From the IMG/VR virus record IMGVR_UViG_2645727867_000003: a stretch of 53,137 bases of DNA; one strand, 5' to 3'. Shown here piece by piece: positions 25,949 through 26,711 of this stretch. A model generated the notes under the pieces. The model had not been told where the DNA came from, did no database searches, and saw only the letters and a list, made by a program, of their open reading frames with translations. Position 1 is the stretch's first letter; each line of letters starts with the position of its first letter. Source of the stretch: a virus. Its lineage: Duplodnaviria > Heunggongvirae > Uroviricota > Caudoviricetes. The position numbers and the translations under genes were made by a program.

Positions 25949-26422
25949 CTAGTTAATACACTGAGTGCGGATATATTCCTGAAGCATTCTCAATGCAGCC
26001 TGGTCGCTGATGATTCCGTCTCTGATACCGAGAACGTTTCGTCCAGCAACCGGAGAGAGTTCGACGGCGGCATCATTGCCCACGCCGGAGGTGCCGGTGG
26101 CTTCACGCACGGTACCGGAGCAGGTGGCGTTGATCCGCAGGCGCTTACGACCAGCGGCAACATCAGCACGCAGAGTTTCATTTTCAGCTCTCGCATCGGC
26201 TAATTCCCTCGAGTATTTTGCATCGAGCGCAGCAACATCGCGCTGGCGCACCTGCATATCAGTAATGGTTGCGTTTGCCTGCTCCAGCTCTCTGGCTTTT
26301 TTATCGCGCTGCGCTTTGTAGATGATGGCGTTATCGCGGTAATGATTCAGCCCCAGACTAAGCGCACCACAGACCACCAGCAGAATAACGGTAAACGCGG
26401 AAAGCATTCGGTTTATGCTCAC
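25949..26422 (-). CDS. Rz: i-spanin Rz
   Basis: N-terminal TM segment, then a coiled-coil periplasmic domain. Contains the embedded Rz1 frame. Confidence 0.85.
25990..26181 (-). CDS. Rz1: o-spanin Rz1 (Pro-rich lipoprotein embedded in Rz)
   Basis: [34 protein letters not shown]… lipobox plus Pro-rich region in the +1 frame of Rz. Confidence 0.8.
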
Positions 26423-26550
26423 CCCAGCAGCCCCGACGAAGATAACATCATCCAGCCCATGGAAAGAAAAAGAGCAACCAGCATTAGTGAAAATGAAATG
26501 CCGACGATTACACAGAGGATCTTCGCCAGCATTATGAGTTTGTCTGACAT
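26419..26550 (-). CDS. small membrane protein (43 aa) translationally coupled to Rz
   Basis: SD AGGGAGGA 7 nt before the ATG. Single TM ([23 protein letters not shown]). Stop overlaps the Rz start (ATGA). Confidence 0.45.
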
Positions 26551-26564
26551 GTTTAATCCTCCCT

Positions 26565-26711
26565 TCACGATTTCAACGCAATGACCAGTTTTGCCAGCCC
26601 ATACAGTATCGGAGACACAGCGATACCAACCGCCACCCACTTAATAGCAAAAGCCAGCGCTCTGCTGATGTCATCACTTACTGGCGCTTTCAGTTCAAGG
26701 CCGTTTTTCAT
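26565..26711 (-). CDS. small protein (48 aa) with C-terminal hydrophobic segment
   Basis: SD GAGG 8 nt before the ATG. Lies between endolysin and Rz. Confidence 0.4.

Follow-up and report, generated by a model that had tools for sequence, protein, structure and literature searches.

This study concerns two very short open reading frames (ORFs), called orfA and orfB here, in the lysis cassette of the IMG/VR virus record IMGVR_UViG_2645727867_000003 (Caudoviricetes); the whole stretch of 53,137 nucleotides that was analysed is called the window below. The window is a lambdoid prophage of Escherichia coli. It was found that its lysis genes lie on the minus strand in the order of holin, a 1.3-kb insert, lysozyme R, a hairpin, orfA, orfB, and Rz/Rz1 (Table 1). 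The initial annotation of this DNA had placed two ORFs of 48 and 43 amino acids (aa) between the signal-arrest-release (SAR) endolysin and Rz/Rz1, and their coordinates were confirmed. Are these ORFs genes, how widely do they occur, and what may they do?

Two small membrane-protein genes

It was confirmed that orfA and orfB are real, conserved genes for single-helix membrane proteins. The orfA ORF runs from an ATG (26711-26709) to a TGA (26567-26565), with a moderate Shine-Dalgarno (SD) element (GAGG, 26721-18) 6 nt before the ATG. The orfB ORF starts 14 nt past the orfA stop codon and runs from an ATG (26550-48) to a TGA (26421-19); its SD element (AGGGAGGA, 26564-57), likewise 6 nt before the ATG, is a strong one, as had been claimed for both ORFs. 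Start codon, SD element, and stop codon are preserved in E. coli, Salmonella, and metagenomic relatives. A lack of coding conservation in related prophages had been named at the outset as an observation that would speak against the two ORFs; instead, both were found to be conserved as coding sequence. In the conserved core of orfA (residues 15-48; 22 distinct DNA versions), the ratio of nonsynonymous to synonymous change (pN/pS) is 0.195, and the variable sites are distributed as 14/4/24 over the three codon positions. By this comparison, purifying selection on orfA is clear. The residues K24, W25, G29, P34, Y37, and G38 are kept in Salmonella and metagenomic relatives. For orfB, pN/pS is ~0.5 overall and 0.15-0.56 for divergent pairs, and neither of the other sense frames is open. 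Its N-terminal 26 residues are well kept and carry the motif CV(I/V)VG(I/L)(S/A)FS, while the C-terminal half is variable. Constraint on orfB thus appears weaker than that on orfA.

Both products match profile families along their whole length. The orfA product aligns with PHROG 1115 (E 3.4e-32, 111 bits; residues 1-48 on profile positions 20-67 of 67), and the orfB product aligns with PHROG 4906 (E 3.1e-21, 76 bits; residues 1-43 on profile positions 7-49 of 49). When remote relatives of orfA were sought with a profile among 1.84 billion representative proteins, only 15 clusters were returned, all of similar small proteins. Searches of Pfam, NCBIfam, and PADLOC gave zero matches for either protein, no Hok/Gef or other toxin family was matched, and a literature search on the accessions, the PHROG identifiers, and the phrase 'between R and Rz' gave nothing relevant. 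Both genes are annotated by PGAP in all of the genome rows listed, with identical RefSeq proteins. Since the PGAP entries read 'hypothetical protein' and the PHROG families are of unknown function, orfA and orfB are catalogued and uncharacterised rather than unannotated. AlphaFold2 models built on family alignments predict one continuous helix for each protein (residues 11-47 of orfA, predicted local distance difference test [pLDDT] 84.6; residues 2-38 of orfB, pLDDT 88), in agreement with the single membrane span first predicted for each. By hydropathy, the hydrophobic core of orfA is weak, with Lys and Pro within, and that of orfB is strong. Both genes are present in the phage records PhiR12_1 to _5 and PhiR5_1/2, whose named hosts are E. 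coli K-12 MG1655 or E. coli C; thus, they are not confined to decaying prophages.

Ribosome profiling (RIBOseq) had been suggested as a check on translation. I found that XECs191, which lies between ant and Rz in prophage Sp10 of E. coli O157:H7 Sakai (current annotation ECs_1966), is an orfB homologue. Hücker et al. (2017) listed XECs191 as a novel gene, predicted an inner-membrane location, and reported the output 'real' from their classifier (PMC5597208). In lysogeny broth (LB), its RIBOseq value was 12.6 reads per kilobase per million mapped reads (RPKM); the ribosomal coverage value (translatome/transcriptome) was 0.43, and coverage was 0.55 (PMC5597208). A published translation signal is therefore at hand for one homologue, but it is low and comes from uninduced cultures, and the mapping of reads to multi-copy prophages could affect it.

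It would be possible to regard both ORFs as chance ORFs in a T-rich intergenic spacer. They are short, and orfB is also spanned by one open antisense frame whose pN/pS is similar, as is usual for that frame relationship. On the other side stand the codon-position pattern and the pN/pS of orfA, the preserved start, SD, and stop elements, the profile families for both proteins, and the RIBOseq signal of the orfB homologue. The conservation data already contradict the idea of chance ORFs, and I regard it as hardly credible.

Table 1. Features of the lysis cassette in the window
Feature	Position	Strand	Remarks
S21-type class II holin (pinholin family), 71 aa	28744..28959	-	PF04971 'Bacteriophage P21 holin S', 112.8 bits; first lysis-cassette gene
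Lysozyme R, 177 aa, SAR-type	26904..27437	-	PF00959 Phage_lysozyme (Pfam), 88 bits
Two-way intrinsic terminator hairpin, 15 bp, G+C-rich	26781..26813	both	T-runs on each strand
AAGGGAG SD-like element, then ACG (26747-45)	26745..26757	-	Site of the 60-aa long-form ATG in most homologues
Promoter-like site TAGTCA-18-TATACT, facing the hairpin	26711..26740	+	Putative; the same bases encode the orfA long form
orfA, 48 aa	26565..26711	-	RefSeq WP_000788411.1; PHROG 1115/4493/3246
orfB, 43 aa	26419..26550	-	RefSeq WP_001280927.1; PHROG 4906
Rz i-spanin	25949..26422	-	PF03245, 134.8 bits; PHROG 13
Rz1 o-spanin lipoprotein, embedded in Rz, different reading frame	25990..26196	-	PF06085, 74 bits

The neighbouring genes are as follows. 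The lysozyme R has a Gly/Ala-rich, weakly hydrophobic stretch at its N-terminus (hydropathy, residues 5-23), and its relatives in the PDB are the phage 21 lysozyme (3hde/3hdf) and RrrD (4zpu). The 1.3-kb insert between the holin and endolysin genes (27568-28740) holds a gene for a 263-aa DUF1327 protein (27949-28740, minus strand), which starts 4 nt past the holin stop codon, and a convergent 210-aa ORF (27568-28200, plus strand) without a match in Pfam, NCBIfam, or PADLOC. Since the 3′ ends of these two overlap by ~250 nt, one of them may not be real. On the 3′ side of Rz lies a gene (25030-25371, minus strand) whose 113-aa product, named 'TonB family protein' in RefSeq, combines a signal like that of lipoproteins (..LSSLVMGC) with a C-terminal TonB domain (PF03544, 56 bits). 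In lambda, the bor gene sits at the post-Rz site, the same kind of place.

Several RNA genes were found elsewhere in the window. The small RNA (sRNA) STnc100 of Rfam is present in five copies (119-172 bits) on the minus strand, four of them nearly in tandem at 31854-32833 and one at 34592-34804, which is an unusual number within 3 kb; the four-copy cluster lies directly 5′ of a SASA/nanS-p-type esterase gene (29663-31627). Matches in the early region (42160-42334 and 43043-43227, minus strand) are the antitoxin RNA sok (117 bits), the antisense RNA C4 (69 bits), and the Hfq-binding RNA isrK (51 bits). On the same strand, 35621-35778 holds two tRNA genes.

Distribution of orfA and orfB

The 431-bp segment comprising the hairpin and both ORFs is 100% identical in six complete genomes and is covered to at least 80% in 1000 of the 5426 complete E. 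coli genomes. In the complete E. coli genomes, the hairpin with orfA was found in 1036 (19%) and orfB in 1641 (30%), often in several prophages per genome. Among phage records, orfA occurs in 12 and orfB in 276, the latter including Shiga toxin (Stx) 1 and Stx2 converting phages, in which orfB follows an antirepressor gene and abuts Rz.

Members of the orfA family lie directly 3′ of five types of endolysin, namely the E. coli SAR lysozyme, other PF00959 lysozymes (Salmonella), GH19, GH108, and Peptidase_M15_4 enzymes, and these endolysins come with several different holin families. The family is also found after a P22-type antirepressor gene. A comparison of endolysin-Rz intervals, as first suggested, thus showed that both ORFs recur there but are not tied to one endolysin class, in a set of loci that had been retrieved by similarity to orfA and orfB. 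Judged from these loci, the recurring feature is the position just after an endolysin.

In these intervals, orfA and orfB are members of a larger set. At least six families of tiny membrane proteins (A, A2, B, C, D, and E) were found in many combinations and orders on the 3′ side of endolysin genes, usually directly 5′ of Rz; A2 is a short paralogue of orfA ending in RWW. The commonest order is A-B, as in the window. The others are D-B, A-A2, E-A-C-A2, Ant-B, Ant-A, Ant2-D-B-A-A2, and A-B-A-A2; Ant and Ant2 stand for antirepressor-like genes. When no Rz can be recognised in the cassette, the order is C-A-B-Lpp, Lpp being a 60-aa lipoprotein. In the Qin prophage of K-12, rrrQ and rzpQ overlap directly, and no equivalents of orfA and orfB exist between R and Rz; the contents of this gap vary among relatives. 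The direct overlap of rrrQ and rzpQ suggests that orfA and orfB have been inserted and are dispensable.

Two of these architectures deserve description. The cassettes without a recognisable Rz/Rz1 (loci L171-L173 at 2071-3461, L177, and L187-L188) have Phage_holin_8 and Phage_holin_3_7 with a GH108 or Peptidase_M15_4 endolysin, behind which come a 65-aa protein anchored at its C-terminus, an orfA-like protein, an orfB-like protein, and the 60-aa lipoprotein (phrog_7528). In L177, this four-gene block behind the endolysin is present twice. In PhiR5_1 (L170, 1903-2349), a row of four precedes Rz, consisting of a 31-aa ORF, orfB, a truncated orfA, and a 28-aa orfA paralogue ending in RWW; the truncated orfA has a GTG start codon overlapping the orfB stop codon (GTGA).

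What is the relation of orfB to Rz? In all of the loci surveyed, orfB lies directly before Rz, the 60-aa lipoprotein gene, or a truncated orfA, and it is also present in GH108 cassettes without a recognisable Rz. In the window, the orfB stop codon overlaps a GTG (26422-20) in the Rz frame. The overlap reported in the initial annotation therefore exists, but its sequence is GTGA rather than ATGA, and RefSeq and PGAP start Rz at an ATG at 26407, 11 nt past the orfB stop codon. The last codons of orfB form a purine-rich stretch 5′ of the Rz start. It may be asked whether orfB serves chiefly for coupling or as a leader, or is a scar of recombination. In that case, its translation would feed ribosomes to Rz once insertions had parted Rz from R, its 3′ end would be the ribosome-binding site of Rz, and its peptide would have little or no function. 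The relaxed pN/pS and the variable C-terminal half would suit this, and so would the compensated frameshift variants of orfB and the ~6% of IMG/VR copies that have a frameshift or have lost the start codon. Moreover, the orfB stop codon overlaps the Rz start or lies within 7-11 nt of it with both Rz types, and in the orders A-B, D-B, and Ant-B no other small ORF separates orfB from Rz, a place that A or A2 takes in other arrays. However, the N-terminal 26 residues and their motif are retained at synonymous divergence (pS) up to 0.59, and orfB also lies 5′ of the lipoprotein gene in Rz-less cassettes and 5′ of orfA in PhiR5_1. I consider it unlikely that orfB is mainly such a coupling ORF.

Fusions of orfB and orfA were considered as evidence of a functional link between the two proteins and were rejected. 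In other strains, a frameshift in orfB runs into a truncated orfA, giving products of 79-83 aa (P0205, with 83 aa, and P0229).

The hairpin and the 5′ region of orfA

The two-way hairpin terminator described upstream of orfA in the initial annotation was found there, at 26813-26781. Its z-score is -3.2. Among 11 variants from different contexts, 97% of the cells of the alignment pair and 5 of the 13 pairs have changed on both sides, well above shuffled and slid controls. Lysis, tail, and remote-homologue contexts all have the hairpin 5′ of orfA, with differing stem sequences. It was shown, at the level of sequence comparison, that the hairpin belongs to the orfA module and moves with orfA. A scan of the window found no sigma-70-like site on the coding strand from the hairpin to orfA and no terminator between the two ORFs and Rz. 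The Rfam search of 26300-27000 gave nothing at the gathering or E-value threshold, save a sub-threshold, terminator-like match to rimP. The Pas sRNAs of pathogenic E. coli were considered and set aside, as they are located between the esterase and holin genes or inside structural operons, not here.

The orfA module is not confined to lysis genes. Together with its hairpin, it was also found in the interval of the tail genes I and J, behind a gene for a tail fibre, and behind one for a SASA esterase. Such sites are no less in keeping with a moron of the late region in general than with a lysis factor. Are orfA and orfB then morons unrelated to lysis, acting for example in superinfection exclusion at DNA entry or in the modulation of a host membrane protein, at a gap between R and Rz that merely tolerates insertions? 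The tail-context copy of orfA has terminators on both flanks, and in L185, another context, the interval from the terminator to orfA contains a promoter-like site on the sense strand. The R-Rz gap houses antirepressor genes in Stx phages, and the combinatorial shuffling of the small genes resembles that at accessory-gene hotspots. On the other hand, the window has no sense-strand promoter-like site, the upstream terminator would prevent expression in the lysogen, orfB is tightly packed against Rz, and no PADLOC defence model matches either protein. A moron function without any bearing on lysis is possible, if on the unlikely side.

The region between the hairpin and orfA was compared in an alignment of 60 distinct upstream regions. 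It was revealed that most orfA homologues have a long form of 60 aa, consisting of MEKYKRILLRLT and the orfA sequence (MKNGLE...), behind an AGGGAG-type SD element; examples are P0126, P0167, P0223, and P0239, and PhiR12_1 annotates the long form as an ORF of 183 nt. Of the 60 variants, only the window pair and one more have an ACG in place of the long-form ATG, as do the six identical genomes. Thus, only the 48-aa orfA can start from a canonical codon in the window. Changes in the 12 extension codons are synonymous or conservative (ATT to ATC, CTG to CTC or TTG, CGA to CGG, and L to M), and the internal GAGG is retained even where residues differ, e.g. GTGGAGGCCAATATG in L183. I read these patterns as a sign that most orfA homologues probably have two real starts, for a basic long form and for a short form. 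The invariant leader AAGTATAAACGAATTCTGTTGAGGTTGAC had been a candidate for a conserved 5′ untranslated region or antisense promoter; it was downgraded when the wider alignment revealed that it codes for the 12-residue N-terminal extension in most homologues.

The same bases contain a promoter-like site on the opposite strand, facing the hairpin. The site was found by the scan in two other contexts (L010, 1447-1476; L185, 2472-2501) and by eye in three more, as TAGTCA or TTGTCA, 18 nt, and TATACT, with TATAAT in the remote homologue L190. The T-run of the hairpin on this strand is present in every context, and in the tail context it is better than the sense-strand one. A putative cis-antisense RNA of ~70 nt, from this site to the hairpin, is therefore possible. 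Coding constraint may suffice to explain the conservation of the site.

Small toxic peptides had also been proposed for the two ORFs, and this idea received no positive support: no Rfam antitoxin, no toxin family match, and no coding-strand promoter-like site for the pair were found in the window. In a more specific version, orfA would be the toxin of a type I toxin-antitoxin-like unit, repressed by the ~70-nt cis-antisense RNA. The promoter-like site is at the same place in all six contexts examined, with a good opposite-strand T-run in each, and the orfA product is small and hydrophobic. Nevertheless, the bases of this site code for the conserved N-terminal extension, with substitutions that track the codons, and its -10 element reads TACACT in ~25 of 160 copies. 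The lack of an Rfam match and of a coding-strand promoter-like site for a toxin mRNA in the window also argues against such a unit, as does the place of orfA inside an operon with orfB 14 nt later. It is highly improbable that orfA is a toxin of this kind.

Possible roles and comparison with known systems

What, then, could orfA and orfB do? As a tentative reading, somewhat short of an even chance, I propose that they are separately mobile genes for single-pass inner-membrane peptides, expressed from the late, Q-antiterminated lysis operon, and that the peptides are likely to be non-essential modulators of envelope disruption. Given the conserved terminator upstream and the lack of a sense-strand promoter-like site in the window, the two genes would be transcribed only when Q-modified RNA polymerase reads through the hairpin. 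They would thus be made together with the holin, endolysin, and spanin, and the peptides would enter the inner membrane concurrently with these proteins. The orfB ORF would be translated from its strong SD element, and terminating ribosomes would be handed to Rz 0-11 nt downstream. The orfA gene would normally be translated from two starts, so that a form of 48 aa and one of 60 aa, whose N-terminal extension is +4, are made; the window copy would lack the first start. The peptides could influence when or how sharply the holin triggers, or how the spanin or endolysin behaves. Since the partners differ between cassettes, the target of the peptides may be the membrane or a host factor and not one particular holin or endolysin.

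The initial annotation had proposed accessory regulators of the pinholin/SAR endolysin pair. An accessory lysis role is reasonable in that these are genuine single-helix genes in the late lysis cassette, with orfB abutting Rz. The specific tie to pinholin and SAR endolysin is unsupported, because members of the orfA family follow five types of endolysin and also sit among tail genes and after a SASA esterase gene, and because orfB recurs in GH108 cassettes that lack a recognisable Rz. Several points weigh against the proposed modulation of lysis. The non-lysis sites of orfA have been mentioned above, and the charged tail that holins typically have at the C-terminus is missing from both proteins. 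The orfB gene is weakly constrained, the conservation of its C-terminal part may merely mirror the ribosome-binding site of Rz, some of its copies are broken, and the RIBOseq signal of XECs191 is open to the reservations given above. Retrieval by similarity to orfA and orfB has biased the counts of architectures. On these sequence data, the link of either protein to lysis is a candidate one and unproven.

A broader view may also be put forward, although I regard it as speculative and unlikely. The endolysin-spanin junction of enterobacterial temperate phages could be a home of unrecognised lysis accessories, where peptides of one helix each, drawn from the families A, A2, B, C, D, and E and arrayed in varying combinations, would work with any type of holin or endolysin and tune or gate the final membrane events. 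The 12-codon dual start of orfA would then be like that of a holin/antiholin and possibly antisense-guarded, and in the Rz-less C-A-B-lipoprotein cassettes the peptides might join in disrupting the outer membrane.

Small membrane proteins are the least understood part of lysis cassettes, and the releasin of phage Mu showed that new lysis functions are still hidden there. Genes of the orfB and orfA types occur in the lysis cassettes of Stx phages, in which the release of toxin is governed by when lysis occurs. If the peptides modulate lysis, they would represent a common, overlooked control point; if they do not, the locus would be a good example of a permissive junction that gathers mobile mini-genes. 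The result is descriptive, and the genes were already annotated; the combinatorial array, the travelling hairpin, and the apparent dual start are modestly interesting leads.

How do orfA and orfB compare with known systems? The families PHROG 1115/4493/3246 and PHROG 4906 and the entries ECs_1966/XECs191 are the same families as orfA and orfB, without a difference, and all are labelled as of unknown function or hypothetical. In two-component spanins, the i-spanin (Rz) has an N-terminal transmembrane stretch and a long coiled-coil domain in the periplasm, and the o-spanin (Rz1) has a lipobox. From the Rz/Rz1 spanins the two proteins differ in having neither a periplasmic domain nor a lipobox, and the genuine Rz and Rz1 genes lie just downstream. 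With type I toxins (TisB/IstR-1, ZorO/OrzO, and ShoB/OhsC) they share a small, hydrophobic inner-membrane peptide, an opposite-strand promoter-like site over the 5′ region, and a terminator 60-100 nt off. In contrast to these, they have no independent toxin promoter in the window and no Rfam or Pfam match, they are embedded in an operon, and the putative antisense promoter lies in coding sequence.

Lambdoid morons, such as bor and lom of lambda and gp15 of HK97, have their own promoter upstream and a terminator downstream and are expressed in the lysogen. Like morons, orfA and orfB interrupt a pair of genes that adjoin each other in relatives (rrrQ-rzpQ), have a terminator associated with them, and are positionally mobile; morons, too, often encode an envelope protein. 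Unlike morons, they have the terminator upstream and no sense promoter in the window, and they are packed into a late operon. The classic definition of a moron therefore applies to them only in part.

Like holins and antiholins, orfA and orfB are small, have one predicted helix each, and lie just 3′ of R. In dual-start holins (lambda S105/S107 and phage 21 S68/S71), the two starts are 1-3 codons apart, and the longer form has extra N-terminal positive charge. Most orfA homologues have a putative pair of in-frame starts of an analogous kind, but at a distance of 12 codons. The cytoplasmic C-terminal tail of holins is charged, and two to three transmembrane domains (TMDs) are usual. In contrast, orfA ends in ...VIALKS with one weak TMD and orfB ends in ...SSSGLLG, both without a charged tail; neither matches a curated holin family of Pfam or NCBIfam, and the window cassette already has an S21-type holin.

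The closest functional precedent is the Mu 'releasin' gp25 (DUF2730), a non-holin, single-TMD lysis accessory encoded within a few genes on the 3′ side of the endolysin (PMC9239132). It has 99 aa; its N-terminal TMD is followed by an acidic cytoplasmic domain of 73 aa, without which the proposed models would not work (PMC9239132). Neither orfA nor orfB matches DUF2730 or another Pfam family; they differ from releasin in being 43-60 aa long, with almost nothing outside the membrane and no soluble domain. On the other hand, members of the releasin family adjoin different endolysin classes, non-SAR ones included (PMC9239132). In the same manner, orfA and orfB encode small, single-TMD, non-holin membrane proteins on the 3′ side of endolysins of varied classes.

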